Source: Dehalococcoidales bacterium
GTDB taxonomy: Bacteria > Chloroflexota > Dehalococcoidia > Dehalococcoidales > RBG-16-60-22
Length of the DNA stretch: 64,000 nt
Direction of reading: 5' to 3'
Assembly (NCBI GenBank): GCA_034414775.1
Contig: DAOULX010000008.1
Location: 659-64,658, forward strand
Under the pieces are notes generated by a model, which saw only the letters and a program-made list of their open reading frames with translations, searched no databases and had not been told where the DNA came from. Positions 12,310-36,474 of this stretch are shown in pieces. The number at the start of each line of letters is the position of its first letter. Position 1 is the first letter of the stretch. A program made the position numbers and the translations under genes.

Positions 12310-12385
12310 GAAATTACCCTTTAAATCCTCGCGTCTTCTATTATTAACACAATTCCGGTAACTTCTAATTTTGATAAATGATGCT

Positions 12386-13282: not shown

Positions 13283-13295
13283 ATTTTAAAATCTC

Positions 13296-16083: not shown

Positions 16084-16539
16084 AATACCCTCCTTATTTA
16101 AAATGTAATTGTTAGTGCACGCTCATATTCTGCGCTGAATCCCCCCAAGCTTGTTGGGGGGGGATAAAAATGGCCCCCGTCCGTAACTTGGTGTGGGGTG
16201 GATACCTATCCCCTAATGCCCCGCAGCTTGCCATGGGGTGCTTCACTGACAGGTATTTCACTTCGTTTGTAACCCCCTTGGAAGTTTATTCAACAAGCCA
16301 GCGATAGTTACGGGCACCATTCCTGACTTCTTTAAGGTTAGATGAATAATGGAACAGTGTTCCATTTTTTAATTGGTGATAGTATATAAGTGCGGAAATA
16401 TTTTGTCAAGAGCTTTGAATCGGAGATAGCCTGTATGCGGAAGTTACTTACTATTTTCAATGCTATGATTCGATCAAAGACAGTTGTTACAATGTTCCTG
16501 TGGAAGTAAAATGAACGGGCGGACGTTGTTGATAGACCC

Positions 16540-16587
16540 GAATTGGAAAAATTACAAGATCGAATCATGGCATCGATTCGGAATTAA
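16540..16587 (+). pseudogene. remnant of another SnoaL-like paralog (N-terminal coiled-coil words fused to C-terminal words)
   Basis: It reads ELEKLQDRIMASIRN*. Gene 277-816 has LEKLEDRVIELE near its start and EAASIRKIEDAR* at its end. The duplicated flank 16573-16623 follows directly. Confidence 0.35.
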
Positions 16588-16661
16588 AGAAGCAATAACT
16601 CCTGTATACGTGATTAGGTGATACTTACCCCAAAAATAGTAAGATTCAGGTAAGGAGCAAA

Positions 16662-17180
16662 ATGATAAGAGAAGAATATGAGAAAAAGTTAAAGAGGTTA
16701 GAGGCTGTTTTGGAAGATCATGAAAAACAGCTGAAAAAATTTAAGGATATACAGGAACTCCAAGAGTTGCATTTAAATTATGCCTACTTGCTGTGCACTC
16801 GTGAATGGGAGAAAATTGTGGATTTGTTCACAGATGATGCAGTGGCTATCCTGCATCGACGAGGAAGGTTTGAAGGAAAGAAAGAAATAATAAAAATATT
16901 TAAAGAAATTGTCCAGAATAATGGCGGCAGGGGAAGAGATGGCCATCTCGCATTACAGCCTATTATTAACGTTGATGGAGACGAAGCAACAGCTCAATGG
17001 CTGATGTACATTATGATTTTGGATCCAAAAGGGAAATATGAGAATACTTGGATGCATGGTAGGCATGATATGGAATACGTCCGTATTGACGGGCAGTGGA
17101 AAATTCGATATATGCTTTTTACATCTCCCTGGCCCAGGGAAGCCTGGTCATACCCCAAATTAGAGCCGCTGAAAAAGTAA
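16662..17180 (+). CDS. NTF2-like / SnoaL-like domain protein (paralog of 277-816)
   Basis: AAGGAG precedes the ATG. The coiled N-terminus (EEYEKKLKRLEAVLEDHEKQLKKFKDIQELQEL) is followed by YAYLLCTREWEKIVDLFTDDAV..RIDGQWKI. Confidence 0.7.
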   Translation: MIREEYEKKLKRLEAVLEDHEKQLKKFKDIQELQELHLNYAYLLCTREWEKIVDLFTDDAVAILHRRGRFEGKKEIIKIFKEIVQNNGGRGRDGHLALQPIINVDGDEATAQWLMYIMILDPKGKYENTWMHGRHDMEYVRIDGQWKIRYMLFTSPWPREAWSYPKLEPLKK

Positions 17181-17199
17181 ATCGTGTGGTGGGATCACT

Positions 17200-18735
17200 T
17201 TAAGAGAGATATTTAACCGCGTTTTCTCCGGCAATTCGGCCCGAATTAAGCGCAAAGCCAAGCAGGTGCCCGGTGAGTTCGTAGCAGTAGCTATCCGATT
17301 CCCAGCCACCAGTCGTCGAGCCGGCAGCAAAAAGGCCAGGGATAGGATCGTCATTGGAGTTAATCACCTCCATATTTTCATTTATCTTGATACCACCGAT
17401 GGCGTCACAAATCTGTGAATGACCTTTGATAGCATAGAAAGGAGGCGATTTGATTGGTAATAGATATATCTTGTCCTTGCAGAAAACGGGATCATAAGCT
17501 TTATCGCAGGCAGAGTTGTATTCCGCGATGGACCTCTTCAGTGTTTCAGGTCTTGCCCCGATCCAGTTAGCAATCTCTTCCAGGGTGTTGGCTATCTTTA
17601 ACCACTCAGAGTGATTTTCGGCAATTTCACGCAACCCCTTTCCTATTCCGGGTAAGGGTCTCCCGCTCGTCACCGAACGTGCCATCGCCTGTTGAACTCC
17701 GTAGGCAGCCGGGCGGAGCAGTCCTTCCTCCTCAATGGACCCCAATATGCTCTCGTCAAACAGGCAATACATGGTACCCTCTGGCTGCTGAGCCGATGCA
17801 TTAGCACAGGCAAAGGAAGAGAGGTTATGACCTTCATCGATATATCTTCGGCCTCTCTTATTCACCCACAGCGTTTGAGGCTCCCAGACAAGGTTTGACA
17901 GAAATACACTTATCTCATTATCCTTGCCGGGATTGATGGTAATACGTCCATCTGGCGAGTTGGAGGAAGGCGAGTGCGGGCCGTGAAACATGATATGCCC
18001 CAGGCCAGCCATTTCCGCTCCGACTTCCATGGCCAGCTGTATGCCATCTCCGGTGTTGTGGCGTACCCCGTGATTCAGCATGACTTCCGGGTTGTAATAG
18101 GAACAATGCTTCGCGAGTAATTCTTTGTTCCCGCTATAACCGCCGGTAGTGATAATAATGCTTTTAGCGGTAATCTGATAATCTTTATCCGGGCCGGTAG
18201 CCAAAACCCCGGTTACCTGGCCGTTCTTCTCGCATAAAATTTTTTCCCCGGGGGTTCTGGTGAGCACCTGTATTCCTCGTTCTTTGCATTCATTGGCCAA
18301 CACTCTCATTAAAAAAGCGCCCCGGCCTTCGATGGCATGCCTGACGCGCGGGCATTGATTGATATAATATTGACTAAGATGGAAAGTGATTCCCTTTTCC
18401 ATAAGCCATCTAATAGTGTCGCCTGATTTATCGATAAAAGCCCGCACAATGCGTGGATTCACCTTTGACCAGTGGCACCAGCGCATGGCTATTTTAAAAA
18501 AATCGTCCCTACGGGCATCGGTGCCCATCCGCTTCTGAACGATGCTTTCGACTCCGAATAAATCGTGTGCCATTGCGGAAGTGCCACCGGTGGAGCCTAC
18601 CTTCTCCAGCACAATTATTCTCTTGCCGCCTTTTTCCGCTGCCGCTAAAGCTGCCGCCAGTCCTGCGCCGCCGCCGCCGATGATGACTATTTCAGCTTCC
18701 AGTTTCTCACATTCTCTTTCTCCTGAAGAATTCAT
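17200..18735 (-). CDS. FAD-dependent oxidoreductase, FAD_binding_2 family (fumarate reductase / KstD-like flavoprotein)
   Basis: It has the dinucleotide motif VIIGGGGAGLAAALAAAEKG and the C-terminal GLFAAGSTTGG. 511 aa, convergent with the SnoaL-like gene. Confidence 0.85.
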   Translation of the reverse strand: MNSSGERECEKLEAEIVIIGGGGAGLAAALAAAEKGGKRIIVLEKVGSTGGTSAMAHDLFGVESIVQKRMGTDARRDDFFKIAMRWCHWSKVNPRIVRAFIDKSGDTIRWLMEKGITFHLSQYYINQCPRVRHAIEGRGAFLMRVLANECKERGIQVLTRTPGEKILCEKNGQVTGVLATGPDKDYQITAKSIIITTGGYSGNKELLAKHCSYYNPEVMLNHGVRHNTGDGIQLAMEVGAEMAGLGHIMFHGPHSPSSNSPDGRITINPGKDNEISVFLSNLVWEPQTLWVNKRGRRYIDEGHNLSSFACANASAQQPEGTMYCLFDESILGSIEEEGLLRPAAYGVQQAMARSVTSGRPLPGIGKGLREIAENHSEWLKIANTLEEIANWIGARPETLKRSIAEYNSACDKAYDPVFCKDKIYLLPIKSPPFYAIKGHSQICDAIGGIKINENMEVINSNDDPIPGLFAAGSTTGGWESDSYCYELTGHLLGFALNSGRIAGENAVKYLS

Positions 18736-18820: not shown

Positions 18821-19018
18821 TTAAGCGGTGATCTCGTCCTCCAGGAGACCTTCCAGAAGCCTCTTGAGCCCCTGCTTGAGCGTGGCGGCGATGGACTTCC
18901 AGATTTCTTCCCGGACATTTACCTCGGTTTCCTTGACTTTTTTCTCCGGAGCCGCTGCTGGCGATTTCATAGGGAGTGTACTTCCCTTCCTGATGTTATT
19001 CTTTATCGGAAAGGGCAC
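18821..19018 (-). pseudogene. IS256/Mutator-type transposase N-terminal stub
   Basis: The 65-aa ORF ends ..EEIWKSIAATLKQGLKRLLEGLLEDEITA*. This resembles the conserved N-terminal helix (..L..LLE.E.TE.LG) of IS256-family transposases. No catalytic part follows. Confidence 0.4.
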
Positions 19019-19272
19019 ATCCCCTGCCTGTTTTCAGCAATTTATCTTATATTACCATGTCCCACTTCGCTGTTATAGTCAAGCGGTTTTTTCAGGGTCG
19101 ATTGTGCCTTGACAACAAAAGTAGAGGGGCGGAGAATAGATAAACCGGACGGACTGGGAGAAGCACCTAAATCAGCACTGGGGCCAGATAAACCAAACTT
19201 GGTTAAAACAATTAATGGCACCGTATGTAGAATCGCATCAGATATGTCAACAAATGATAAGGAGAGCAAATA

Positions 19273-20256
19273 ATGAAAAGGATAAAAGTAGTATTCAGAG
19301 GCAGCTTTGAGCCTGAGGTTTGGGATATGTTCATCAAAGAGGCTCCACAAAATATAGAGGCTTTAATGATAAACCCAAAAGATACAACCGAAGAGGCTAT
19401 CGCCAAGCTAATGGTGGACACTGATTTTCTGATATGCTATAGAGGATGTGGCCGCATCCCAAAGGAGACTATTCAGGGAGCAAAAACTCTCAAGCTAATC
19501 CACCAACTTGGACAGGGTACCAACCATATACCGGTAAAAGCTGCGGCGGAAATGGGGATCCCTGTCACCAATATTGGCGGTGCCAGTGCGACGTCTGTTG
19601 CGGAGTATGCCGTGCTACTGATGCTGGCGGTCTTAAGATATCTGCCAATGCGCATCGCAGCTATTCATGGCGAAAAGCAAGATGTCAACCTCACCAGCAG
19701 ATATTCATATCAGCTATACCAGAAAACGGTTGGACTCGTGGGTTTTGGCAATATCGGGCGTTGGACTGCCAGGCTGCTACGCGGCTTTGATGCAAAGGTA
19801 ATCTTCCACGATAATTATGAGATTCCAAAATCAATTGCTGACGAACTCCAGGCTGCCCAGGTGAGTCTGGATGAACTGCTTTCAAGTGCTGATGTTGTTA
19901 GCCTGCACGTGCCACTGCGCGAGAGCACTCAAGGAATGATAGGTTGGGAGCAGCTGAACAAGATGAAGCCTTCAGCTGTTCTGATAAATACTGCCCGGGG
20001 AGCGGTAGTAGATGAAGAATCGCTTATCGGCGCTCTACAACAGAATATTATCGCCGGTGCAGGGTTGGACGTACTCACAAATGAACCGCCAAGCCCCGAT
20101 AATCCGCTATTGCATATGCAAAACGTAATCGTTACCCCGCATTCCGCAGCATCAAGAATCTGGGAAGATATCTCACCCTTAGTCAAACTCAGCTGGGAGA
20201 ATGTTTCGCTGGTGTTGGACGGTAAAAAACCACATAACATTGTGACTCCAGAGTAG
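19273..20256 (+). CDS. D-isomer-specific 2-hydroxyacid dehydrogenase (NAD-binding)
   Basis: It contains GLVGFGNIGRWTARLL (GxGxxG), RESTQGMI, NTARGAVVDE and TPHSAA. AAGGAGAG precedes the ATG. Confidence 0.85.
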   Translation: MKRIKVVFRGSFEPEVWDMFIKEAPQNIEALMINPKDTTEEAIAKLMVDTDFLICYRGCGRIPKETIQGAKTLKLIHQLGQGTNHIPVKAAAEMGIPVTNIGGASATSVAEYAVLLMLAVLRYLPMRIAAIHGEKQDVNLTSRYSYQLYQKTVGLVGFGNIGRWTARLLRGFDAKVIFHDNYEIPKSIADELQAAQVSLDELLSSADVVSLHVPLRESTQGMIGWEQLNKMKPSAVLINTARGAVVDEESLIGALQQNIIAGAGLDVLTNEPPSPDNPLLHMQNVIVTPHSAASRIWEDISPLVKLSWENVSLVLDGKKPHNIVTPE

Positions 20257-20339
20257 CGATTAGCAACGGATTGTACTCAATTATCAGTTAACACAAGACA
20301 ATAAATATTGGAAAACCGTATTTATAAGGAGGTTCGATT

Positions 20340-22022
20340 GTGGCTTTGAAGCGGGGCAGTGAAGCGCTGATGGAAATTATGCAAAACGAAGGAGTTGAGT
20401 ATGTCTTCGGTATCCCAGGTGTAACCGAAATAATGTTCATGAGTGCTCTCGAAAAGCACCCTGAGATAAAGTATATCCTAGGTCTTCAAGAAGTTATTTG
20501 TGCCGGTATGGCGGAAGGCTACGCCAGGATGTCTGGTAAACCGGGATTCCTTAATCTACATACCGCCCCCGGTTTGTCAGCCGCGATGCCCATATTAATT
20601 AATGCCCATATGGGCAACGTACCATTGATAGTAACTGCAGGGCAACAAGATACCCGTCTGCTGCTAAAAGACCCTCACCTGACCGGTGACCTGGTCGGAA
20701 TGGCAAAATCATTCTCCAAATGGCAGACCGAAGTCTTAAGAACTGAGGACATACCTCTTGCCATGGAGCGTGCCTTTAAAATGGCAATGCAACCTCCAAG
20801 CGGACCAGTCTTCTTATCCTTGCCGCATGATGTTATGTGCAATGAGATGGATTTTGAATATACTCCGCGTAAACCGCTCTTGAACGAGCTACGACCAGAC
20901 CGAAATGCTATCACCCAGGCGGTGAATTTACTTGCCAATGCAAAACCTAACAAAACCATAGCAATGTTCGTCGAGAGCGGTATAGCTAGGAACGATGCTT
21001 TATCAGAGGCAGTCCATTTCGCCGAATTGACAGGGGCGCGTGTATACCAGCCGTGGATGTCTGATATTAACTTCCCTATCCAGCACCCACAGTACATCGG
21101 TGGCATACAACTCTCCAGCCCCGAAACCAGAGACATGTTCCAATCAGTTGATGTACTGGTGATAATAGGATGCCCGTCATTATATAATTTACCTTACTTT
21201 GAATTTAGATCAATTTTACCCAAAGATATTAAAATATTACAGCTAGATGATAATCCCTGGGAAATTGCCAAAAACTTCCCAATAACGGTTGGTATCCAGG
21301 GTCATATAAAGGCATCCCTCAGGGAACTGATTGATAATCTGGAAGAGAAGATGACAACTGAGGCCAAACAAGCGGTAAAAAGCAGGATAAATGATATATC
21401 TGTACAGAAACAAGCCGTTTCAGAAGCTTTTCGTAAGCAAGACGAGGCAGAAAAGGATAACATCCCCATTTCCGTTTCATGGTTAATGAGAGAATTAAAC
21501 CGTGTTATTACACGTGATACCGTAATCGTGGATGATTGCTGGTCATCATCACGAACCCTACAGCGTGTACTGGATATTACCGATGTTAAAGGTTTTATCC
21601 GTTCTCGCCGGGGAGGGAGTATAGGATGGGGATTGCCAGGTGCTATCGGCGCCAAATTGGGTGCACCTAATCGGCCTGTAGTAGCTGTGTGCGGAGACGG
21701 CAGTGCCATGTGGTCAATCCAAGCTTTATGGACAGCAGCACACTGCAAAATACCAGTTACTTTTCTCATAATATCCAATGCAAATTACCGACAAGCCAAG
21801 CTTATGTGGAAAGTGTTCTTAGGTGGAGATTTAACTGAGAAGCGTATTGGCATGGATCTGGACGATCCCGTAATCAACTTCTGCAAGTTAGCTGAAGCAA
21901 TGGGTGTCTATGGAGAGAAGGTGCAACACCCAGATAACTTGGGACAGGTGTTGACAGATGCCATCGATTCCAATGCACCACGTCTGATTGAAGCGATTGT
22001 AGAAAACAAAAACACTCCTTGA
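20340..22022 (+). CDS. thiamine-diphosphate-dependent enzyme (acetolactate synthase / benzoylformate decarboxylase-like)
   Basis: GTG start 7 nt after AAGGAGG. It has an N-terminal Pyr domain (GVEYVFGIPG) and the C-terminal ThDP motif GDGSAMWSIQALWTAAHCKIPVTFLIISNANY. Confidence 0.85.
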   Translation: MALKRGSEALMEIMQNEGVEYVFGIPGVTEIMFMSALEKHPEIKYILGLQEVICAGMAEGYARMSGKPGFLNLHTAPGLSAAMPILINAHMGNVPLIVTAGQQDTRLLLKDPHLTGDLVGMAKSFSKWQTEVLRTEDIPLAMERAFKMAMQPPSGPVFLSLPHDVMCNEMDFEYTPRKPLLNELRPDRNAITQAVNLLANAKPNKTIAMFVESGIARNDALSEAVHFAELTGARVYQPWMSDINFPIQHPQYIGGIQLSSPETRDMFQSVDVLVIIGCPSLYNLPYFEFRSILPKDIKILQLDDNPWEIAKNFPITVGIQGHIKASLRELIDNLEEKMTTEAKQAVKSRINDISVQKQAVSEAFRKQDEAEKDNIPISVSWLMRELNRVITRDTVIVDDCWSSSRTLQRVLDITDVKGFIRSRRGGSIGWGLPGAIGAKLGAPNRPVVAVCGDGSAMWSIQALWTAAHCKIPVTFLIISNANYRQAKLMWKVFLGGDLTEKRIGMDLDDPVINFCKLAEAMGVYGEKVQHPDNLGQVLTDAIDSNAPRLIEAIVENKNTP

Positions 22023-22330
22023 CATTATATGCTCCCCGGTAACTGGGTAAAAGTAGAGTGATTTTTAAGTAATCGAAGAAAGCATTAGCTTCATGAAATG
22101 TTGCTCGTGAACATTAAATTTGTGTGATTCGTAGACATCGTTTCAAGAGGTCTTGGAGCTACCATCAAAAAAATGTGGAAATATTCAACGGCAGCGAGTA
22201 CCATATTAGGTAGCCCAAAAAACAGCCGAAGGAGGTACTTGCCGCCGCCATGGGATAGTACAAACTTTCAATACATGCTGATAGCAACAACTCCAGATCG
22301 CAAGAATATATATTGGATAAGGAGAAGTAG

Positions 22331-24937
22331 ATGGGTAAGACCGAAAACAGCCGAGAAAATACCGTTATCAGGTCTTTAGCCCTCGGAGGTGGTTTAGGTG
22401 GCGGCGGGCCATGTGCGGTGGACGTTAAAGACGGTAAAATAATCAGGATCAAACCCTTGCACTATGACTGGAAATATAAAAAAGAAGAACTAAATCCTTG
22501 GAAAATTACCAGGAATGGCCAAACCTTTGAACCTCTTATGAAAACGGTAGTGGCTCCTTTCTCACTGGCATACAAAAAGCGAGTCTATTCTCCCAATAGA
22601 ATTAAATATCCCTTAAAGAGGAAAGACTGGGACCCTAATGGGAAAAGAAATCCTCAGAACCGGGGCAAGACCAAGTATCAGAGAATCTCCTGGGACGAGG
22701 CTGCTCAAGTAATAGCGGATGAAATAAAAAGAGTTAAGGCAACATATGGTCCACTGGCAATCTTGTTGCAGGGGGATGGGCACGGGGAATGCAAGACCAT
22801 CCATGCATCTCACGGATGCCCTGCGATTCTCTTAGATAAAATGGGAGGCTTTACCCAGCAGATAAGAAACCCGGACAGTTGGGAAGGCTGGTATTGGGGC
22901 TCCAAGCATGTGTGGGGACAGGGCTGGGTGGGCATGATGAGGCCCTCGACTAATCTGGTCAAGGACATCACCGAGAACTGCGAATTGGTCCTCTGTTGGG
23001 GCTGTGATCCGGAAACCACCTCTTGGGGATTTACCGGCCAGTTTGCCAGCCGGCTAAGCTACTTCTGGAAGGATGTTGGCATAAATCAAGTCTATATTTG
23101 CCCTGACCTTAATTATGGAGCGGCGGTTCATGCGGATAAGTGGATCCCTATTCTTCCAAATACCGACGCCGCCTTACAGTTAGCTATTATATATCAATGG
23201 ATAAAGAAAGATACTTACGATAAGCAGTATGTGGACACTCATACCGTGGGATTTGACAAGGTTAAAGCTTATGTAATGGGGGAAGAAGATGGTATAGCCA
23301 AGTCCCCAGAGTGGGCCTCCAAGAAATGTGGCGTTCCTGAATGGACTATCAAAGCTCTGGCAAAGGAGTTTGCCTCAAGGATCACCTCCATTGTCCATTA
23401 TTTTGGCGGCTCCATGGTTAGAGGGGCTTACTCACACGAGCCAGCTAGGCTGGAAGCTATCTTACTGGGCATGCAGGGGCTGGGGAAACCCGGTGTCCAT
23501 CAGTTCCAGATAGGTTATGTAGGAATGCCCAGAAGTAAAGCCGCCATAGACTCATCATTTTTTAATGTTAATGTGAGTGAAAGTATTAAAAGGCCACAAG
23601 CAGTCACCCTAGAATTGAGTGAAAAGCAAGGTATTCCCAAAACCCTTATACATAAAGCTATTCTTAATCCCCCACTTAATTTTTGGGGCAGTGGTGCCAT
23701 AAATGCTACCTATGAGGACCAATTTAAGAAGTACACCTATCCCATCCCTAAAGATCAGGGTGGTACGGAGATCCATATGATCTGGACGGACTCTCCTTGC
23801 CGGACCACCTGCTGGAACTGCGGCAACGAGATCGTCGAATCTTATCGTAGTCCCAAGATAGAATGTATGATAGCCCAGCATCCCTGGTTGGAAAATGACT
23901 GCCTATATGCTGATATAATCCTGCCGGTCAGTACCACCTTGGAGGTGGAAGATATTGTAATTAATCTCAGGCAGGGAGTACAGTTCCAGAGCATCGTGCT
24001 GCAGAAACAAGCTATCCAACCAATAGGAGAATCGCGGAGCGATTTGGAAGCAGTTTATGAGATAGCCAAAAAACTGGGCAATTATGATGAGATCAACGAT
24101 AGTAAGAGCTCTGAAGAATTAGAGAAATCGGTCTTCGATTATATGGGAGCGCAGAAGTTCATTAACTGGGAAGAGTTCAAAGAAAAGGGCTACCTCCCCT
24201 TCCCGATTGCTGAAGATTGGGAAAAAGATCCAGCGGGTTTAATAAAATTCTATGAGGATCCGGTAATGAACCCTCTGACTACTCCCTCGGGTAAGCTGGA
24301 GTTCTATTCCGAAAGACTAGCTAAATATTTCCCCCATGATCAAGAGAGACCGCCGATTCCTAAGTGGATAGAAAAGAGTGAAATGCATGATGAAAGACTC
24401 TCCAGCAAACGGGCGCAAGTATATCCCCTGCTTCTGATGTCCAACCACGGAAGATGGAGAGTACATGCCCAATGCGACGACATACCGTGGACAAGAGAAA
24501 TTCCGACTTGCAAGGTAAAGGGATGGGATGGTTATCTATACGAGCCTGTTTGGATACATCCTAAAGATGCAGAAAAAAGAGGCATAAAAGATGGAGATAT
24601 TGTTAAAGTATTAAATGAGCGTGGTATTGTTCTTGGGGGAGCGCGTGTCTGGGAAAGAATAATGCCCGGTGTAACCTATGTCGACCATGGCGCGAGAGTA
24701 GACTACATCATTCCAGGAAAACTTGATCGGGGAGGGGCAATCAACACCATCGCTCCAGATGGAATTACTTCTAAATATTGTGGTGGGCAGGCCACCAGCG
24801 GTTACCTGGTGGAAGTCGAAAAGTTGACTCTCTCGCAACTTGAAGGTTGGAAGAATCAATACCCGGATGCTTTTGTCAGGGGATACGATTCATCATGCGG
24901 ATTACTTTTTGAATCCTGGGTAACTGAAGAAAGTTGA
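22331..24937 (+). CDS. molybdopterin (bis-MGD) enzyme without Fe-S cluster motif, pyrogallol-phloroglucinol transhydroxylase large-subunit-like
   Basis: 868 aa with no N-terminal Cys cluster and no twin-arginine motif. It has DMSO-reductase-family architecture. The strings VKDGKIIRIKP, YPLKRKDWDPNGKRNPQNRG and NPDSWEGWYWGSKHVWGQGW match my recollection of AthL. This needs checking. Confidence 0.75.
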   Translation: MGKTENSRENTVIRSLALGGGLGGGGPCAVDVKDGKIIRIKPLHYDWKYKKEELNPWKITRNGQTFEPLMKTVVAPFSLAYKKRVYSPNRIKYPLKRKDWDPNGKRNPQNRGKTKYQRISWDEAAQVIADEIKRVKATYGPLAILLQGDGHGECKTIHASHGCPAILLDKMGGFTQQIRNPDSWEGWYWGSKHVWGQGWVGMMRPSTNLVKDITENCELVLCWGCDPETTSWGFTGQFASRLSYFWKDVGINQVYICPDLNYGAAVHADKWIPILPNTDAALQLAIIYQWIKKDTYDKQYVDTHTVGFDKVKAYVMGEEDGIAKSPEWASKKCGVPEWTIKALAKEFASRITSIVHYFGGSMVRGAYSHEPARLEAILLGMQGLGKPGVHQFQIGYVGMPRSKAAIDSSFFNVNVSESIKRPQAVTLELSEKQGIPKTLIHKAILNPPLNFWGSGAINATYEDQFKKYTYPIPKDQGGTEIHMIWTDSPCRTTCWNCGNEIVESYRSPKIECMIAQHPWLENDCLYADIILPVSTTLEVEDIVINLRQGVQFQSIVLQKQAIQPIGESRSDLEAVYEIAKKLGNYDEINDSKSSEELEKSVFDYMGAQKFINWEEFKEKGYLPFPIAEDWEKDPAGLIKFYEDPVMNPLTTPSGKLEFYSERLAKYFPHDQERPPIPKWIEKSEMHDERLSSKRAQVYPLLLMSNHGRWRVHAQCDDIPWTREIPTCKVKGWDGYLYEPVWIHPKDAEKRGIKDGDIVKVLNERGIVLGGARVWERIMPGVTYVDHGARVDYIIPGKLDRGGAINTIAPDGITSKYCGGQATSGYLVEVEKLTLSQLEGWKNQYPDAFVRGYDSSCGLLFESWVTEES

Positions 24938-24996
24938 AAAGGTGCATATAAGGCCTCAGCCTTTGATGAAATAATGAATACGGGGGATTATAAAGA

Positions 24997-27411
24997 TTGA
25001 GCAGTATTAATTCAGCAGTAGACGGGGAGAGGATAATAAGAACTGCTTGTCATCTCTGTCACGGTGGTTGTATCTTACTGGCCCATGTTAAAGAGGGGAG
25101 ACTTATTAAATTAACAGGTGACCCCGAGGGGCCATTAAACAGAGGCGGTATGTGCGAAAAAGCATTTTCTGCCGTTGACTATGTATATAGCCCCTATCGC
25201 CTCAAACATCCTATGAAAAGGGTTGGAGAAAGGGGTGAAGGGAAATGGCAAAGAATCTCTTGGGATGAAGCTCTTGACACCATAGCTGGAAAATTGCAGG
25301 TCATAAAAGACAAATATGGAGGAGAGAGTATTGCATATGCTACTGGCACCGGTAGAGTAGCCGTCGAAACGCCGCAAGAGTTTTTTAGTGCTGTATTGGG
25401 TACACCGAATTGTATAGGTATTGGTCACATGTGCCTTAGTACCACCAGAAGACCCGTTGTTTATTCAACTCTAGGAACAGTACCCGGAAATATGGATAAA
25501 GGTATTTGCCGTGATTTTGAACGAGCTCAGTGTATCGTAGTTTGGGGAGATTCAATTATCGACTCGCGTGGTGATTATATGGGGCTCGCAGGGAAAAGGA
25601 TTTCTTCAGCACTCAATCGAGGAGCAAAGCTGATAGTCATAGACCCGGTATTAACAAAGGTGGCAGCGAAGTCCCATCTATGGCTGCAAGTCAGGCCTGG
25701 AACTGATATCGCTCTTGCATTGTCATGGATACATATAATTATAAATGAAAACCTATATGATATGGATTTTGTAATAAACTGGACCAATGCACCTTTTCTC
25801 GTCAGGTCTGATACGGGAAAGCTGCTAAGGGAAAAGGACATTTTACCCGATGCGTCACCTGATAATTTTGTTGTTTGGAATGCTGATGATAATACCTACC
25901 ATATATGGAACTCCGATATGCTCTCCTACGACTCGCACATTGCACAACCTGCTTTGACCGGAAGTTACTCAGTCAGCTTGGCAAACGATAGAATAATTGA
26001 ATGTAAGCCAGTCTGGCAAGTCATCAAAGATAATGTTAGAGAATGGACGCCGGAAAGGGCAGCCGAGATAACATGGATTCCCCCTGAAAAAATTGTAGAA
26101 TCTGCCATGATGTATGCCAAGATTAAGCCCGCATGTCTTGAATGGGGGCTTGGGACCTCTCAATGCACACGGTCAACAGCTACAAATCAGGCAATTTTAC
26201 ATCTTAAAGCAATTACTGGAAACCTTGATATTCCTGGAGGTAACCCTTTCTGGATTAATCCAGGAGTACTGGGAAGACCTGTCTTCTCCGCTTATCCCCC
26301 TGGGCAAGAAAAAAAGCGTATAAATGGCGGTTTCCCTTTTAATTGTTATGAAATATTGCCTGTCTTTGCTACCCATGCACCTACAGCGTGGAGGGCTGTT
26401 TTAACAGAGGAACCCTATCCAATCAAAGCGCTAGTCGGCCATAGCAGCAATCCATTATTAGGACATGAAAATCCAGGCAATTATATCCTCGAAGCATTGA
26501 AAAAGTTAGAGTTCATTGTATGGATAGATATTACGATGACGCCATCAAATGAGTGGGCAGACATTGTCTTACCCGCATCAACACCTTTGGAAAGGGACTG
26601 GATATCTGAATTTGACAGGGGCGTCTTTGCCGGCAAGGCCGTAATTCAACCACAGTGGGAAAGCAGATCTGACCTTGAAATTTATAGGGATTTATGTCAA
26701 AAGATGGGGCGTGAGGATGCATGGCCATGGAAGACTGATCGAGAGTGGTGTGACTATAGGTTAAAAGGTGCAGGAATAACTTTTGATGAGTTGACTGAAA
26801 CTTGTTTCAAACCTGCACTGGATGTTTGGAAAAAATATGAAAAGGGCTTGATACGTAAGGATGGTAGACCAGGATTTCAGACAAATTCAGGGAAAGTTGA
26901 ACTATATTCATCTCTTTTTGAGAAAGCAGGCATTCAACCTCTACCGCATTTTAGTTATCCGCCTGAAAGTTACGAAACCACGCCCGATTTAGCAAAAGAA
27001 TACCCATTAATATTAATTACTGGAGCTCGGGAATTAAATTATCCATTCTTTCAGACACAATACCAGATTTTACCCCGTTTGCGTAAAATGCAGCCTTATC
27101 CTTTGGTGCTTATTCACCCGGATACGGCACGTTCCTTGGAAATAAAAGACAATGATTGGGTATGGATAGAGACAAAAAAAGGCAAAGCCAAATTCAGAAC
27201 TCAAGTTACAGAAAGAATACATCCAAAGGTAGTTTCCGCCTCACATGACTGGTGGAATCCAGAATTTCCCGGTCCTGATCACGGGGCATTTGAGTCAAAT
27301 GTGAACCTCCTTGTTGACCCCGTCAGCTTTACTGACCCAGCTTCAGGTACAACAGAACTTAGAGGACTATTATGCAGGGTATATAAGTTCGAAGCAATCG
27401 CTGAAACTTAA
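24997..27411 (+). CDS. molybdopterin/tungstopterin (bis-MGD) enzyme with N-terminal [4Fe-4S] motif, acetylene-hydratase-like clade
   Basis: TTG start after GGGGGA. It has the Cys motif CHLCHGGC...C(EKA) and a candidate metal-ligand Cys in GIGHMCLST. The C-terminal GKVELYSSLFEKAGIQPLPHFSYPPES..LAKEYPLILITGARE resembles acetylene hydratase as I recall it. Confidence 0.75.
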   Translation: MSSINSAVDGERIIRTACHLCHGGCILLAHVKEGRLIKLTGDPEGPLNRGGMCEKAFSAVDYVYSPYRLKHPMKRVGERGEGKWQRISWDEALDTIAGKLQVIKDKYGGESIAYATGTGRVAVETPQEFFSAVLGTPNCIGIGHMCLSTTRRPVVYSTLGTVPGNMDKGICRDFERAQCIVVWGDSIIDSRGDYMGLAGKRISSALNRGAKLIVIDPVLTKVAAKSHLWLQVRPGTDIALALSWIHIIINENLYDMDFVINWTNAPFLVRSDTGKLLREKDILPDASPDNFVVWNADDNTYHIWNSDMLSYDSHIAQPALTGSYSVSLANDRIIECKPVWQVIKDNVREWTPERAAEITWIPPEKIVESAMMYAKIKPACLEWGLGTSQCTRSTATNQAILHLKAITGNLDIPGGNPFWINPGVLGRPVFSAYPPGQEKKRINGGFPFNCYEILPVFATHAPTAWRAVLTEEPYPIKALVGHSSNPLLGHENPGNYILEALKKLEFIVWIDITMTPSNEWADIVLPASTPLERDWISEFDRGVFAGKAVIQPQWESRSDLEIYRDLCQKMGREDAWPWKTDREWCDYRLKGAGITFDELTETCFKPALDVWKKYEKGLIRKDGRPGFQTNSGKVELYSSLFEKAGIQPLPHFSYPPESYETTPDLAKEYPLILITGARELNYPFFQTQYQILPRLRKMQPYPLVLIHPDTARSLEIKDNDWVWIETKKGKAKFRTQVTERIHPKVVSASHDWWNPEFPGPDHGAFESNVNLLVDPVSFTDPASGTTELRGLLCRVYKFEAIAET

Positions 27412-27698
27412 TGTAGAAACCAGATAAAATTCATAAGCGTTTTTTTTTACTGATCATGCTGATGAAACTGCATCAGAAACTACTTTTCCATTTATATCAT
27501 CCTAATTCTTTCTATCATATACTTTATTGGTGATTAGCACGCATCCTCGATACTCAGTAGCACTCGGTATAGCTGTGGACTGCTTGTGCCATTGGCCCCA
27601 AATACATCTAGACTTCCCTTCGCTCACTAGCTTCTCGCAATTGAACATACCTCAACTATATTCGACCAAATCAGAACGATACCCGAATGGCGGTTAAT

Positions 27699-27772
27699 TT
27701 GACATTATCTCTGCTATATGTTATATAGTAACTTAATAATGGGAATATAATTCCTCTTGTCGGAATATTAGG
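27699..27772 (+). promoter_or_regulatory. sigma70-like promoter plus palindromic candidate operator upstream of the UbiD gene
   Basis: TTGACA(27699-27704)-17 nt-TATATA(27722-27727) is followed by GGGAATATAATTCC..CGGAATATTAGG (27741-27772), which has GGAAT/ATTCC arms. Confidence 0.35.
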
Positions 27773-27810
27773 TATATTATACATATAAAAATAAGAGAGG
27801 AGGTAACTTT

Positions 27811-29271
27811 ATGCCTGGCAGAGACTTAAGGAGCTGGATAGTCCAATTGGAAGCTGAGGGTGAGTTTAAGAAAGTAACCGCACCAGTAGATTGGAACGAA
27901 GAAATATCCCAAATTATCCGGAAAGTATATGCCCAAAATGGTCCAGCTCTTCTATTTGATAATATCAGGGATTACCATAATACTCGGGGCCGAAGACTAT
28001 TTGTCAACGGTTTGGGAACAACAGGTCGTGTAAATATGATGCTCAATCTACCGAAGGATACTCCTATTCCAAAGCTGATAAAGACGATCAGAGATAGAAT
28101 GAAGTCACCAATAAAACCTGTGACGGTTAGCACCGGACCGGTCAAAGAAAATATTGTCAAAGGTGACGATATTGACCTTTTTCAATTCCCGGTGCCCAAA
28201 TGGCATGCGCATGATGCTGCGCGTTATATTAATACTTTCTATTCGGCAGTGACCAAGGATCCGGATACCGGCCAGTTAAATTGTGGTATCTATCGAGGTG
28301 GGATACTCAGTAAGAACAAGATAAGCAACCTATTGATACCCATGAAAGATTGGGGCGCTACTTATTCTAAGTACCAGCTTATAAAAAAACCAATGCCAGT
28401 AGCATTCGTCTATGGCTGGGATCCGGCTCTACTAGCAATTTCGGGAGTTCCATGTATCGGGCCCGAGTATGACCTGGCAGGAGCATTAAGGCAAGCTCCA
28501 GTGGAATTGGTTAAATGCGAATCCTCAGATATAGAGGTCCCTGCTTCAGCAGAAATAGTGGTTGAAGGCACTATTTCTCCGGATCCCCAAAGCTACGAAG
28601 TCGAAGGGCCATTCGGTGAGGCTTCCGGGTACTATGGTGTGGCTAGAACAAGACCGGTGGTAGAAGTTAGTTGCATCACGCACAGAAATGATCCCATTTT
28701 CCGAGGGGGTTATGTCGGTACTGAGAGTACTGTTACAGATGAACTCAAGACCATGGTGGGTAACACCATGTCAGCCGGTGTTTGGAGTATATTGGATACG
28801 CAAGAAATTCCGGGTATACTTGACGTCCAAACAGGGCACATAACAGCAATCAAGATTCACAAAACCTACCAAGGCCAGCCCAGGCAGATAAGCGCGGCTT
28901 TATGGGGATCCAAGTTTGCGGGTCAAGCTAACAGCAAGATAATCATGGTGGTTGAAGAAGATGTGGATATTCATAATCCCATGGATCTTCAGAAAGCCCT
29001 ACATGATAAACTAGATATTAAAGGAGGTCTAGTCTCATATCCCTTATACATCGGATCACCAGCGGACCCAAGTATTCCCTATGAGATGAGAAATGAGCTA
29101 AAATATGGGGCTGCCATGCAAGAAAAGCTGCTAATTGACGCTACGACCGATTGGGAAATTCACCCCATTCGCTCTGAGTGGGGTGGTAGCAGATTCCCCC
29201 CCAAGGCTATTGAAGCTTCAAGAGAAATAGAGGAATTGGTAGATAGAAGGTGGAAAGAATATAATATATAG
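27811..29271 (+). CDS. UbiD-family (prFMN-dependent) decarboxylase
   Basis: GAGGAGG precedes the ATG. The N-terminal RDLRSWIVQLEAEGEFKKVTAPVDWNEEISQI..GPALLFDNI is typical of UbiD. 486 aa. Confidence 0.85.
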   Translation: MPGRDLRSWIVQLEAEGEFKKVTAPVDWNEEISQIIRKVYAQNGPALLFDNIRDYHNTRGRRLFVNGLGTTGRVNMMLNLPKDTPIPKLIKTIRDRMKSPIKPVTVSTGPVKENIVKGDDIDLFQFPVPKWHAHDAARYINTFYSAVTKDPDTGQLNCGIYRGGILSKNKISNLLIPMKDWGATYSKYQLIKKPMPVAFVYGWDPALLAISGVPCIGPEYDLAGALRQAPVELVKCESSDIEVPASAEIVVEGTISPDPQSYEVEGPFGEASGYYGVARTRPVVEVSCITHRNDPIFRGGYVGTESTVTDELKTMVGNTMSAGVWSILDTQEIPGILDVQTGHITAIKIHKTYQGQPRQISAALWGSKFAGQANSKIIMVVEEDVDIHNPMDLQKALHDKLDIKGGLVSYPLYIGSPADPSIPYEMRNELKYGAAMQEKLLIDATTDWEIHPIRSEWGGSRFPPKAIEASREIEELVDRRWKEYNI

Positions 29272-29679
29272 ATTCATCTGTTCGTTAATATGAATCGAAT
29301 CATGGTATTACATCCCGATTAACTTTTTAATGGTTAAAATAAGTTTGATGGCTATTTTCAAAGGATCATTCAACTGACATTGAGACAGTTTTTATAATGT
29401 AGCTATAATATAAAAGTAAACTAAAAGGAAGTAACATCAAGAGGTGTGGATATAATCGGCGTTAGCGAGTGACCCTTTCTGTTAGTGAAGAAAATAATTG
29501 CGAAGGAAGTACTCACTACCGCCATGGAAAGCAAGCCACAAAAAGGATCTAGCCGTTAATTATTGTCCGGGAAAACCTGGAAGAATGAGGACGAAGGAAA
29601 GTACAGGAATTCATCCAGCCTCTTCTAGAGGAGGAAATCACCGATATTGCCTATATTTTATTAATGTTGGAGGTTTGAT

Positions 29680-30873
29680 ATGAGCGCATTAAATCAACTG
29701 ATAAAGATGTACATTCCGAATTCGGTCGTTGGATTAGGGGCTATTAACTCCATCAGTGAAACTATCAAAGGTTTTGCTCCGACAAAAATTCTTGTTCTTT
29801 CCGATGAAGGTTTGAGGAAAGCCGGGATTGTAGATAAGGTTATACCCTACCTTAAAAGTGCCGGCTATCCATTTGATATTTATGATAAATGTGAAACGGA
29901 GCCAACTATTAGCCACATTGAGACATTAGCACATAGTATTAAAACTAAACACTACGATCTCCTTATCGGTTTGGGAGGAGGCAGTGTCATGGATACTACC
30001 AAGGTCGCGAGTTTAATTGCTGCCAACAAGGGTGTAAACACTTATGACTTGATTAACGGCCAAAAGGTAGAAAATACCATTCGAAAGATACTTATTCCTA
30101 CTACTGCCGGTACTGGCTCGGAATGGAGCTATGCCGCCGTGGTTTCGGACGATAAAGCAGATAAAATGACAAAACTGATCTCAACCCAGCAAAACTTTGC
30201 TGATGCAGTGATCATAGACCCGGAACTAACCTTCGATTTACCTCCCAGGATTACAGCGGATACCGGGATCGATGCTCTTACACACTGTATGGAGGGCTAT
30301 TTCGGAGCTAGATCGAATGTACTTTCTGATATGATTAATGGAACAGCCTTGCAGCTTATTGCCGATAACTTACGTTCTGCCTACCTTCAGGGAACCCAAA
30401 ATCACGAAGCCCGATTTAATATGTCGGTTGCTGCCGCTCTTGCAATTCAGGGTGGAGGTCTTTCTGGTTCACCACTCGCACATATTTTAAATGAACCTCT
30501 TGGAAAAAGAGTGCACATATCCCACGGTACTGCCTGTGGCTTATTACTGGTGCCAGTCATGAAGTTTAATCTCCCAAGTAATCCGAAGAGGTTCGCCCAG
30601 ATTGCCCGAATAATGGGAGAAGATATCCATTTGCTCTCTGATCTTGAAGCAGCTGCCAGGTCAACGGAGGCAGTATACAAACTGATTAAAGACATTAAAA
30701 TGCCGACAAAACTTGCTGAGGCGACGGATATCGAGCTTACTGAGACAGATATCTCGATAATGGCGGAACAAGTCTCTAAAGCCTTTCCCATACTAAATTT
30801 AACAAATACCCGGCCAGTCACTCTCTCAGATGTAACACAAATCTATAGGCATGCTATTTGGGGAGAAAACTAG
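29680..30873 (+). CDS. iron-containing (group III) alcohol dehydrogenase
   Basis: It has the GLGGGSVMDTTK motif and the metal-site histidines IDALTHCMEGY and RVHISHGTACG. 397 aa. Confidence 0.85.
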   Translation: MSALNQLIKMYIPNSVVGLGAINSISETIKGFAPTKILVLSDEGLRKAGIVDKVIPYLKSAGYPFDIYDKCETEPTISHIETLAHSIKTKHYDLLIGLGGGSVMDTTKVASLIAANKGVNTYDLINGQKVENTIRKILIPTTAGTGSEWSYAAVVSDDKADKMTKLISTQQNFADAVIIDPELTFDLPPRITADTGIDALTHCMEGYFGARSNVLSDMINGTALQLIADNLRSAYLQGTQNHEARFNMSVAAALAIQGGGLSGSPLAHILNEPLGKRVHISHGTACGLLLVPVMKFNLPSNPKRFAQIARIMGEDIHLLSDLEAAARSTEAVYKLIKDIKMPTKLAEATDIELTETDISIMAEQVSKAFPILNLTNTRPVTLSDVTQIYRHAIWGEN

Positions 30874-31055
30874 TCCAGCTATTTTTCAAACCCAACATCA
30901 TAAAAAAGAGTTAAAGATATTTATGGTAGGAATAAATTCCATTCCTGATCCGGCTTCCTTGTAAAGATATGGATACAAAAACCGTATTTCAAGGGTAAAT
31001 CTGTCTCTTGTCCGGCCCTTCTTGGTCTCTATCACTTTTGAATAATTTACGGCCC

Positions 31056-31385
31056 TGTTGTGGTCTAATAAAACGGACACCTTAAGAAGAGTCAGGTAAA
31101 ATAGAAGAAAGCAGGAGGTGTTCGATTGACCGAGCAAAAGAGGGGACGTTACACCGCGGAGTTCAAGAATTCTTCCACTTGCGTATCCGGCTGGGATGAA
31201 CCCGAAACCGGTTGGCCAGTTCGGCTATCGTTTCTTCACCCTTTGATGCTTCCAGGGCTACCCTGGCCTTGAATGATGGGCTGTGTTTCCTTCGGTTCTT
31301 TGTCATGTCCTGCTCCTTTCTCTCTTCCTATTTTTAGGGCAGGACCCGCTCTTAGCTACGTGTCCAAATTCCGGGGACCACCTCA
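31056..31385. mobile_element. two IS3-family left-end stubs joined head-to-head (IR plus truncated orfA on each strand)
   Basis: On the + strand, IR TGTTGTGGTCTAATAAAACGGACAC (31056) and AGGAGG precede TTG-TEQKRGRYTAEFKN (31126-31170). On the - strand, IR TGAGGTGGTCCCCGGAATTTGGACAC (outer end 31385) and AAGGAG precede MTKNRRKHSPSFKARVALEASKGEETIAELANRFGVHPSRIRKWKN (31306-31169). The two stubs meet at the GAATTC at 31167-31172. Confidence 0.65.
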
Positions 31386-33445: not shown

Positions 33446-33776
33446 TCTGCTTCGTTCACTCCTCGGAATCGCCATTCGGTTCCTTTTCATCGATCAAGTG
33501 CAAAACGTTTTTCCTGACTTCCCGCAGGGTGTTGTCCAGTTCTATAATATCCGAGGTGTAGAGATAGGCAAGGAATATCCTGACACCCTGGAATTCCGTG
33601 ACTGTGCCCGAAGTTCCTTCGCCGTGGTCTTAATAGCGTCCCTGTCCGGCTGAGCCATGTACTTAAGATTTTAAACGGATACTAATAGATTATCGATGTT
33701 AAAGTCATATACGAAATAATTCATTTTATTAATTAGTGTCAGAGTTGAAAAAGATTAGTTAATTCGGGTGTGGGCC

Positions 33777-34928: not shown

Positions 34929-35178
34929 GTCGTCATAGCTCCTCCAGCCCCCATTATCAGTGATAATGGGGCGGGTGCTCAAGTCCGGGCTGGATTTACC
35001 TGCCCTTATCCCCCAATCCGTCCCCATATAATCCCTGTTGATGGTTCGGGACATAAGTTACAGACACTCATCATGAAATACTCCTAGAATCGAATTGAAA
35101 AAGCGGCTTTCGCCCGACCTGCCTGAGGTTTAAGTCATCCCTAGTGGCATGCTAATATAGCTTAGAGGAGGAAGGCAC

Positions 35179-35625: not shown

Positions 35626-35659
35626 ACATCTTTCCCCGTCCGGTTAAGGCAGGCACGCC

Positions 35660-36472: not shown

Positions 36473-36474
36473 CC

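Follow-up and report, generated by a model that had tools for sequence, protein, structure and literature searches.

Gene content and layout of the block

The DNA analysed here is a 64-kb window of a contig from a Dehalococcoidales bacterium (GenBank DAOULX010000008.1), and all positions below refer to this window. Our subject is a block of six genes on its plus strand (19273-30873; genes 1-6), which an earlier note, made from the sequence alone, had proposed to be a single catabolic system built on two molybdenum or tungsten (Mo/W) enzymes. Six co-directional genes with the coordinates and domain content described there were recovered in the open reading frame (ORF) listing and by Pfam. Gene 1 (19273-20256, 327 amino acids [aa]) belongs to the D-isomer-specific 2-hydroxyacid dehydrogenase family (2-Hacid_dh, and 2-Hacid_dh_C at 1.4e-57). 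Gene 2 (20340-22022, 560 aa), which starts 83 bp after gene 1, encodes a benzoylformate-decarboxylase-like thiamine diphosphate (ThDP) enzyme with TPP_enzyme N, M and C domains. The next two genes, 59 bp apart, encode cytoplasmic enzymes of the bis-molybdopterin guanine dinucleotide (bis-MGD) class. Gene 3 (22331-24937, 868 aa) lies on the branch of AthL, the large subunit of pyrogallol-phloroglucinol transhydroxylase; its first domain is the cluster-less AhtL-like_1st, followed by Molybdopterin and Molydop_binding (PF21423, PF00384 and PF01568), with no Fe4S4 or other Fe-S domain. Gene 4 (24997-27411, 804 aa) has one [4Fe-4S] site and combines Molybdop_Fe4S4 with Molybdopterin and Molydop_binding domains. 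Gene 5 (27811-29271, 486 aa) encodes a UbiD-family decarboxylase, dependent on prenylated FMN (prFMN), with the UbiD_N, UbiD and UbiD_C domains (PF20695, PF01977 and PF20696), and gene 6 (29680-30873, 397 aa) an iron-containing alcohol dehydrogenase (Fe-ADH and ADH_Fe_C domains).

All six ORFs are intact and retain conserved cofactor motifs, and a Shine-Dalgarno sequence of the GGAGG type stands before every one of them (6/6). The block is split into at least four units by three AT-rich non-coding gaps, which part genes 1-2, genes 3-4, gene 5 and gene 6: 22023-22330 (308 bp, GC content 0.40), 27412-27810 (399 bp, 0.35) and 29272-29679 (408 bp, 0.36). Six-frame translation of the gaps revealed no coding remnant, no BsdD/VdcD-like small subunit and no remnant of a beta subunit; the second gap is the spot at which most orthologues of gene 4 have a gene for a Fer4_11 beta subunit. 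The third contains the block's best sigma-70-like match (29380-29409), a consensus match only, in which 11/12 positions fit. Promoter and terminator scanning yielded numbers close to those expected from shuffled sequence (35 promoter-like sites versus 26 ± 5, and 10 terminator-like sites versus 12 ± 3) and was not used for defining operons. An Rfam scan of 16-34 kb for molybdenum cofactor and TPP riboswitches and other RNAs gave no match at E <= 0.1.

Several absences described in the earlier note hold. The block has neither regulator nor transporter genes and no dedicated electron-transfer partner gene, and tblastn detected no BthL-type beta subunit and no UbiX anywhere in the 64-kb window; one gene-5 orthologue locus (L166) has a UbiX gene 5 kb from its UbiD gene. 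For gene 5 itself, a UbiX may be supplied from outside the window, by another part of the genome. No twin-arginine motif is present at the N-terminus of either bis-MGD protein, in keeping with the claimed lack of twin-arginine translocation (Tat) signals.

No block gene passed an NCBIfam equivalog cutoff, and the only model passed was a generic UbiD subfamily model. Gene 1, below every such cutoff, has PGDH, McyI and glyoxylate reductase as its nearest PDB entries. The best NCBIfam match of gene 2 is benzoylformate decarboxylase (363.3 bits, below the cutoff of 493), and enzymes of this kind also account for every one of its top 49 PDB matches (223 bits at best). Gene 5, with its three-domain UbiD architecture, exceeds the TIGR00148 cutoff (264.3 bits versus 244.85) and falls below every named equivalog cutoff (VdcC, AroY, UbiD, phenylphosphate carboxylase); its nearest PDB entries are an unnamed UbiD (7pda, 210 bits), HmfF (162) and UbiD (158), with AroY reaching only ~95, and its orthologues, at 61-74% identity, are found in metagenome-assembled genomes (MAGs) of Dehalococcoidales. 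Gene 6 is nearest in the PDB to methanol dehydrogenase, 1,3-propanediol oxidoreductase and lactaldehyde reductase, and is below all NCBIfam cutoffs. Judged by these family matches, the predicted reaction types of genes 1, 2, 5 and 6 are fixed, but not their substrates.

Neighbourhoods of relatives and the two bis-MGD enzymes

Homologues of genes 3, 4 and 5 served as anchors for 170 loci drawn from genome and metagenome collections (L numbers below), which were searched with the window proteins by tblastn. The single coherent six-gene system that had been proposed fails on recurring co-localisation: the six-gene set is found in 0/170 loci, and in the window itself it is interrupted by the three long gaps. 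The earlier note had named, as an outcome that would speak against its proposal, best hits scattered over different well-characterised pathways together with a lack of recurring co-localisation; six-gene co-localisation is indeed lacking, but the best hits do not lie in such pathways, all of them being uncharacterised paralogues. Within 10 kb of a gene-4-like gene (162 loci) there was an AthL-like gene in 18 cases, a UbiD gene in 7 and a gene for aldehyde:ferredoxin oxidoreductase (AFOR) in 7; ThDP enzyme and 2-hydroxyacid dehydrogenase genes were seen once each, and an Fe-ADH gene never. The UbiD genes near gene-4-like genes share no more than 28-35% identity with gene 5, and three independent neighbourhoods of gene-5 orthologues (67-70% identity) contain no Mo enzyme. 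Among the neighbours of gene-5 orthologues are a FAD_binding_4/CCG/FAD_binding_4 trio, UbiX, a FAD_binding_2 protein with a small ferredoxin, tripartite ATP-independent periplasmic (TRAP) transporters and AFOR. Across many loci, UbiD, AthL-like, gene-4-like and AFOR genes co-occur loosely.

The only conserved internal linkage of the block is that of gene 3 with gene 4. Adjacency in this order, with short spacers, recurs in L005 (74% and 60% identity, respectively) and L085 (71% and 74%), and L037 and L137 have an AthL-like gene beside a more distant gene-4-like gene. The pairing is not obligate, as gene-4 orthologues in L006, L087, L128 and L170 have no adjacent AthL-like gene and close gene-3 homologues in L002, L003 and L004 have no gene-4 partner. 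A metagenome scan with gene 4 by a peptide-pattern method returned mostly distant relatives, the close ones being only L086, L087 and L128, and plasmid tblastn searches with genes 2 and 4 gave identities of at most 37%, uninformative for synteny.

Gene 3 had been likened to the pyrogallol transhydroxylase large subunit, and its closest solved structure is indeed that enzyme (PDB 4v4c, E 1.5e-125). In the alignment, gene 3 keeps the metal-ligand Ser175 of AthL together with Asp174, His144 and Trp176, and the motif NPDSWEGW is conserved. It differs at the pocket: Tyr152 is replaced by Ala, Arg153 by Ser and Tyr404 by Met, and Trp354 is deleted; near Tyr404 the alignment is gapped and of low confidence. 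We take Tyr404, Tyr152, Arg153 and Trp354 to be the substrate and cosubstrate pocket residues of AthL, a list said to go back to Messerschmidt et al. in 2004. The gene-3 subfamily, at about 70% identity, is very large (5374 hits at E <= 1e-50), and the top 120 hits are all at least 67% identical. Members of the gene-3 subfamily, found in Chloroflexota and Deltaproteobacteria MAGs, consistently have no adjacent beta subunit, and genes of the family often occur in several copies per locus. L003 also encodes a more AthL-like paralogue with a BthL-type partner; this BthL-like gene, used as a tblastn query, had no match in the 64-kb window. By analogy, gene 3 would act in the manner of AthL, transferring hydroxyl groups or hydroxylating its substrate, with Ser as the ligand of its metal.

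Two AthL-like genes from one sample (ERZ25039477), at 18631-21168 of L004 and 18058-20533 of L170, are split into 2-3 called fragments. They are either pseudogenes or products of long-read frameshift errors, which calls for caution in counting paralogues.

Acetylene hydratase (Ahy), to which gene 4 had been likened, is its best match among solved structures (PDB 2e7z, E 8.6e-92), and gene 4 keeps the four cluster cysteines, the metal-ligand Cys (equivalent to Cys141) and the Lys of that enzyme. In its cluster motif, CHLCHGGC, a His beside the second cluster Cys (Cys12) replaces Asp13, which we take, from the structural literature, to be the catalytic residue of acetylene hydratase. This His is invariant across gene-4 orthologues, and Asp occupies the position in 0 of the 120 relatives listed. 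His is common there in a wider sample of the radiation as well, including homologues from Slackia and Enterorhabdus, and within that sample Asp is found in Ahy alone, the one exception being L071, a distant actinobacterial homologue. An insertion of ~78 aa also sets gene 4 apart from acetylene hydratase. Its start codon is TTG, and the exact protein with this start matched no database record.

A Fer4_11 beta-subunit gene lies downstream, overlapping or close, in 4/5 gene-4 orthologue loci with downstream sequence (L005, L006, L012 and L170), and next to 71/163 members of the gene-4 family. The window and L085, which holds the closest gene-4 orthologue, are the exceptions; the beta subunits of L005, L006 and L170, used as tblastn queries, matched nothing in the second gap or in the rest of the 64-kb window. 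In a neighbour-joining tree with few references and no support values, Ahy is basal and the gene-4 clade is nested among Eggerthellaceae homologues; gene 4 shares 34% identity with Ahy and 34-38% with the Eggerthellaceae homologues. It shares both the radiation and the His with the Slackia and Enterorhabdus homologues, in a comparison set without the characterised Dadh, Dodh and Cldh. The earlier note had deduced non-redox chemistry from the missing partner genes; their absence is real in the window, but for gene 4 the deduction is weakened by the exchange of Asp for His and by the beta subunits of its orthologues. Because of these two features and of its place in a catechol-dehydroxylase-like radiation, redox chemistry is likelier than hydration, and gene 4 is more plausibly a redox-active dehydroxylase-type enzyme than a hydratase.

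A distant relative of gene 4, P0197 (1006 aa), has a Fer4_11 beta-subunit domain fused at its N-terminus and therefore lends independent support to a poly-ferredoxin partner as the norm in the gene-4 radiation. Gene-4-like proteins also occur, at 35-43% identity, in archaeal MAGs (L007 and L013; Methanomethylicia/Methanomethylicota), with a degenerate cluster motif, SAGPGCHGGCG, in which the first Cys is missing. The bacterial hits P0181-P0207 belong to the same degenerate-motif group.

Composition, boundaries and flanking genes

The block departs in composition from the DNA on either side. Mean GC is 0.48 in the left flank, 0.44 in the block and 0.58 in the right flank, and the GC content at third codon positions (GC3) of the genes is 0.53-0.64, 0.36-0.48 and 0.65-0.84, respectively; GC3 in the block differs from that of the left flank at p = 0.0013 and from that of the right flank at p = 0.0004 (Mann-Whitney). 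Tetranucleotide usage deviations of the block correlate with those of the left flank at r = 0.73 and with those of the right flank at r = 0.59, both below the r = 0.84 between the two flanks, and the block is thus compositionally foreign to both. Within-compartment controls gave 0.82-0.91, and the two halves of the block r = 0.82. Relatives of genes 3, 4 and 5 at 60-74% identity come overwhelmingly from Dehalococcoidia and other Chloroflexota, with some from "Deltaproteobacteria" MAGs. The loci that hold the closest relatives match the block in composition (GC 0.45 in L085 and 0.47 in L169), which fits acquisition from a lower-GC relative in the same phylum.

Five 60-nt lines counted by hand for G+C in the earlier note were exact on recount (5/5), and the composition step it placed on the right is sharp, with GC rising from 0.40 to 0.57-0.60 across 31.0-31.4 kb. 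At 19 kb, where it placed the other step, plain GC changes only weakly (~0.50 to 0.45), but GC3 and tetranucleotides do set the block apart there. Outside the block, a second AT-rich patch at 16.2-17.0 kb (16200-17180, GC 0.38-0.41) covers a SnoaL_4-domain gene (16662-17180) with a GC3 of 0.405 and block-like composition, and the left edge of foreign DNA may therefore not lie at 19 kb. The flanks also differ from one another in mean GC3 (0.57 for 1-18735 versus 0.71 for 31514-64000, p = 4e-5), though not in tetranucleotide signature. Possibly the left flank represents accessory DNA of older date that has been partly ameliorated, in which case the window may hold two layers of acquisition. An isolated GC dip to 0.478 at 44001-45000, between the ORF 43577-44326 and dnaE, interrupts a right flank that is otherwise at 0.55-0.68.

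Transposase stubs had been said to bracket the block. On the left, a short minus-strand ORF (18821-19018, its translation ending in EEIWKSIAATLKQGLKRLLEGLLEDEITA before the stop) had been called an insertion sequence (IS) stub, the N-terminal part of an IS256 transposase. This identity is unverified: the ORF had no Pfam, NCBIfam or plasmid tblastn match, and a blastn search of the 600-bp left-edge region against plasmids found nothing. On the right, where head-to-head IS3 stubs had been placed at 31056-31385, the minus-strand transposase fragment is real, but its assignment to IS3 is not favoured over IS66 TnpA (NCBIfam scores of 18.3 and 32.7 bits, respectively). It is a truncated HTH_Tnp_1 transposase-accessory fragment (31163-31306, minus strand, 47 aa; PF01527, 31.4 bits versus a cutoff of 24.1, profile positions 2-45 of 75) that coincides with the sharp GC step and abuts a plus-strand ORF start, MTEQKRGRYTAEFK (31126-31167, 14-15 aa). 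The latter has a Shine-Dalgarno sequence and is a possible transposase OrfA start, with no family match and too short for assignment. A search for direct or inverted repeats bounding the block gave only chance-level matches. A composite transposon or IS-bounded island was rejected, there being a verified IS fragment at the right end only and no bounding repeats.

The right flank, which we take as native chromosome, opens with a tungsten-type AFOR gene (31514-33445, plus strand; AFOR_N and AFOR_C domains) of host-like GC3 (0.72). It is followed, up to 39026, by genes for a protein with CinA and Mo-cofactor-binding domains, electron transfer flavoprotein (ETF) beta, ETF alpha, which has a 2x[4Fe-4S] ferredoxin domain at its N-terminus, and a FixC-like flavoprotein. 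The stretch 31514-39026 is a FixABC-type, possibly electron-bifurcating module, through which aldehyde oxidation could feed the ferredoxin and NADH pools. The flank also encodes a split transketolase, whose halves are 65-71% identical to counterparts in a Dehalococcoidaceae MAG, and DnaE. AFOR genes lie near AthL-like, gene-4-like and UbiD genes in L002, L018, L027, L074, L081, L104, L131 and L168.

In the left flank are two peptide-type ATP-binding cassette transporters, a FAD_binding_4/CCG/FAD_binding_4 trio, a carboxylesterase, the SnoaL-like protein and a FAD_binding_2 flavoprotein. The trio (6414-10687, minus strand), GlcDEF-like by its Pfam domains with an Fe-S protein (CCG) in the middle, is homologous to and colinear with trios at 11710-16256 of L166 and 12337-16798 of L168, which lie directly downstream of gene-5 orthologues and are 46-49%, 48-49% and 33-34% identical to the three window proteins. 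These resemblances suggest a UbiD-plus-flavoprotein module that is split in the window by 17 kb and a composition boundary, and the trio is possibly linked in function to gene 5. A succinate-dehydrogenase-like FAD_binding_2 flavoprotein and a ferredoxin of ~75 aa precede the gene 3-gene 4 pair in L085 (948-2930), and a FAD_binding_2 flavoprotein with a ~75-aa ferredoxin precedes the gene-5 orthologue in L169 (3388-5279). The FAD_binding_2 gene that adjoins the left side of the block (17200-18735, minus strand) is of another subfamily, as it gave no tblastn hit at 1e-20, and lacks a neighbouring small ferredoxin. Exact-sequence look-up of this protein and of the flanking AFOR, for an empty site or an alternative junction, found neither on record.

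Interpretation and comparison with known systems

With moderate confidence, we favour the view that the block is an accessory segment of mosaic make-up, gained by horizontal transfer and composed of uncharacterised Dehalococcoidia-type catabolic paralogues, which probably act on hydroxylated aromatic acids; our confidence in any particular substrate is lower. We infer that at least three modules, each circulating on its own, went into it, namely genes 1, 2 and 6 (module A), gene 5 (module B) and genes 3-4 (module C). As a six-gene unit it appears to be a one-off mosaic and not a conserved new pathway. The substrates, the order of steps and any cooperation between modules proposed here are drawn from family chemistry. 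In module A, gene 1 would oxidise a 2-hydroxy acid to a 2-oxo acid, by analogy with side-chain routes of the mandelate or Ehrlich type; gene 2 would decarboxylate the product to an aldehyde, which could go to the Fe-ADH of gene 6 for reduction or to the neighbouring AFOR for oxidation. The prFMN-dependent UbiD enzyme of module B would carboxylate or decarboxylate an aromatic or heteroaromatic acid. In module C, genes 3 and 4 may add, shift or remove ring hydroxyls such that the ring becomes reducible, with gene 4 acting as a Cys-ligated, [4Fe-4S]-containing catechol-dehydroxylase-like enzyme and not as an acetylene hydratase. As substrates, hydroxylated aromatic acids of plant or sediment organic matter seem most likely. 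Of the fermentative route for a phenolic or unsaturated substrate proposed earlier, the idea of anaerobic action on a phenolic substrate thus survives, but that of one redox-neutral system is not supported.

Several points weigh against this interpretation. Because no block enzyme is more than ~40% identical to a characterised one, the assignment of aromatic substrates is a family-level analogy. The block cannot work as a pathway of its own, since a transporter, a regulator, UbiX, a beta subunit, phloroglucinol reductase and a ring-cleaving enzyme are all missing from it. Co-directionality and good ribosome-binding sites equally fit a single long transcript. With genes 3, 4 and 5 as its anchors, our survey would have missed a conserved module of genes 1 and 2, or of genes 1, 2 and 6, that occurred elsewhere. 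Finally, the mobile-element framing depends on one end only, because the left boundary is diffuse and the stub there is unverified.

We also entertain, as a long shot, a more specific role for module C. Genes 3 and 4 might form an electron-coupled hydroxylase/dehydroxylase pair that achieves net transhydroxylation without a tetrahydroxybenzene cosubstrate, a beta subunit or an external carrier. The AthL-like enzyme would hydroxylate a phenolic ring with water in a two-electron oxidation, and the electrons would pass, directly or via the [4Fe-4S] cluster of gene 4, to the dehydroxylase-like enzyme, which would remove a different hydroxyl. Such coupling would explain why an AthL-like gene directly precedes the gene-4 member in precisely the two closest beta-less loci, namely this window and L085.

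An alternative that we consider unlikely is that the six genes are a functionally unrelated accretion from the very large Dehalococcoidia catabolic gene pool and share no pathway, in which case loss of the beta subunit may have left gene 4 inactive or dependent on a partner encoded elsewhere. The neighbourhoods of close homologues are highly variable, the beta subunit is absent exactly where orthologues have one, and the right boundary, with its truncated mobile-element genes, bears signs of rearrangement; chance adjacency is made likely by the sheer size of the gene-3 family and its frequent multiplicity within loci. Such an accretion does not account well for the adjacency of genes 3 and 4, with short spacers, in at least two independent loci, one of which holds the closest gene-4 orthologue and is also beta-less. 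Nor would it predict six intact ORFs with conserved cofactor motifs, or the loose co-occurrence of UbiD, AthL-like, gene-4-like and AFOR genes.

The proposal of the earlier note, that the six genes form one co-evolved, self-contained and redox-neutral fermentative pathway in which both Mo/W enzymes catalyse net non-redox reactions (transhydroxylation and hydration), now strikes us as unlikely. It draws on the six co-directional genes with their Shine-Dalgarno sequences and on a common composition, distinct from the flanks, that extends over both halves of the block. The closest solved structures are moreover those of the two known non-redox bis-MGD enzymes, Tat signals and beta subunits are lacking, and NAD-linked oxidation by gene 1 and reduction by gene 6 could balance redox. 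Against this stand the failure of the set to recur in any of the 170 loci and the three gaps of 300-400 bp, together with gene-5 orthologues that are never found beside Mo enzymes. Gene 4 has no Asp13 and its orthologues carry electron-transfer subunits, and the block is without UbiX, a transporter, a regulator or downstream genes for ring reduction.

It is quite improbable that the island and its edges are artefacts of an assembly chimera, in which a 66-kb MAG contig joins two or three populations at a repeated mobile-element sequence. GC3 does differ significantly in each pairwise comparison of the three compartments, and the sharpest step in this metagenome-assembled contig lies where two truncated transposase starts, one on each strand, abut. 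The flanks, however, share a tetranucleotide signature at the level seen within compartments. The abutting stubs differ, with ~10 bp in common, which is too little for a misjoin in a k-mer graph, and no repeat links the two boundaries. In addition, an independent Logan assembly (L001) reproduces part of the block exactly, without spanning a junction, and gene 3 is present in identical form in SRR14802573.

Least probable by far is an alkyne (acetylene) module, in which gene 4 would hydrate acetylene or a substituted alkyne to an aldehyde for reduction by gene 6 or oxidation by AFOR. In its favour, no PDB entry matches gene 4 better than acetylene hydratase does, all four cluster cysteines are kept along with the Cys ligand and the Lys, and Fe-ADH and AFOR genes lie nearby. 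Against it, gene 4 has His for the presumably catalytic Asp13, the ~78-aa insertion, orthologues with beta subunits and, at 34% identity, no closer relation to Ahy than to the Eggerthellaceae homologues. A strict acetylene pathway was rejected, and so was a copy of the gallate-pyrogallol-phloroglucinol pathway, for want of BthL, the reductase and the hydrolase; the earlier note had rightly held the block to be distinct from both.

In sediment and subsurface Dehalococcoidia, AthL-like and acetylene-hydratase-like Mo/W enzymes have undergone very large expansions that are uncharacterised. AthL-like and "acetylene hydratase-like" genes on scaffolds of sediment Chloroflexi were noted, by annotation only, in 2013 and 2016 (PMC3971608, PMC4959651), and searches of a literature library for the combination of transhydroxylase, acetylene hydratase and UbiD returned no description. 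A paper on urolithin Mo enzymes had no bearing on the AthL class. Labelling such genes as "pyrogallol" or "acetylene" enzymes by homology is unsafe: the gene-4 clade is without the hydratase catalytic residue and usually has an electron-transfer subunit, and the gene-3 clade is without a beta subunit and several of the transhydroxylase pocket residues. We regard the block as an anaerobic, phenolic-type catabolic island of uncharacterised subfamilies, in which two bis-MGD catalytic subunits are paired in a recurring, beta-less arrangement. If the pair cooperates, it would provide for cytoplasmic hydroxyl rearrangement on phenolics in the anaerobic turnover of lignin- or tannin-derived carbon, and catechol-dehydroxylase-type chemistry would extend from gut Actinobacteria to environmental Chloroflexota.

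Among characterised systems, AthL/BthL of Pelobacter acidigallici (PDB 4v4c) transfers a hydroxyl in the conversion of pyrogallol to phloroglucinol, with tetrahydroxybenzene as cosubstrate, and BthL is a beta subunit with three [4Fe-4S] clusters and an immunoglobulin-like domain. AthL resembles gene 3 in its whole architecture, cytoplasmic location, Ser metal ligand and neighbouring Asp, His and Trp; in contrast, identity is ~40%, the pocket residues differ, and AthL has its BthL partner whereas gene 3 belongs to a separate beta-less subfamily. Acetylene hydratase of Pelobacter (Syntrophotalea) acetylenicus (PDB 2e7z) shares with gene 4 the four-Cys [4Fe-4S] site, the Cys ligand, the Lys and the lack of a Tat signal. 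At 34% identity, it differs in having kept Asp13, in lacking the ~78-aa insertion and in branching outside the gene-4 clade. Acetylene hydratase is a monomer that works without an electron-transfer partner; a beta gene is missing beside gene 4 in the window and in L085 but present beside the orthologues in L005, L006, L012 and L170.

According to Maini Rekdal et al. 2020 (PMC7028382), reductive catechol dehydroxylases form the sister clade of acetylene hydratase, nearer to it than any other bis-MGD clade. Those of the Gordonibacter type are Tat-less and soluble with a small 4Fe-4S partner, and homologues of catechol dehydroxylases are widespread among environmental anaerobes that degrade aromatic compounds (PMC7028382). 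The enzymes known from Eggerthella and Gordonibacter (Dadh, Dodh, Cldh, Hcdh) appear to share with gene 4 one acetylene-hydratase-related radiation, and the Gordonibacter architecture is that of most gene-4 orthologues. The likeness runs via uncharacterised Slackia and Enterorhabdus homologues, however, and the window has no Fe-S partner gene; the hosts of the characterised enzymes are gut actinobacteria, whereas that of gene 4 is an environmental member of the Chloroflexota.

Genes 1 and 2 recall the mandelate pathway of Pseudomonas putida (mandelate dehydrogenase, benzoylformate decarboxylase and benzaldehyde dehydrogenase), which likewise leads from a 2-hydroxy acid via a 2-oxo acid to an aldehyde, but which uses the FMN enzyme MdlB where the block has the NAD-type gene 1, and an NAD(P)-dependent aldehyde dehydrogenase where the block has Fe-ADH or AFOR. 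For module C, a further parallel may exist in Thauera aromatica AR-1, whose phenolic gene cluster is reported, in work of Molina-Fuentes et al. from 2015, to include an AthL/BthL-type hydroxylase. We take the Thauera route to be a respiratory, oxidative hydroxyhydroquinone pathway with beta subunits and a dedicated regulator, its gene content and order being unlike those of the block. If the hydroxylase is indeed part of it, the cluster would offer, as a lead only, a precedent for two Mo-enzyme classes in one phenolic pathway. The 3,5-dihydroxybenzoate (alpha-resorcylate) operon of this strain contains a catechol-dehydroxylase homologue (PMC7028382).

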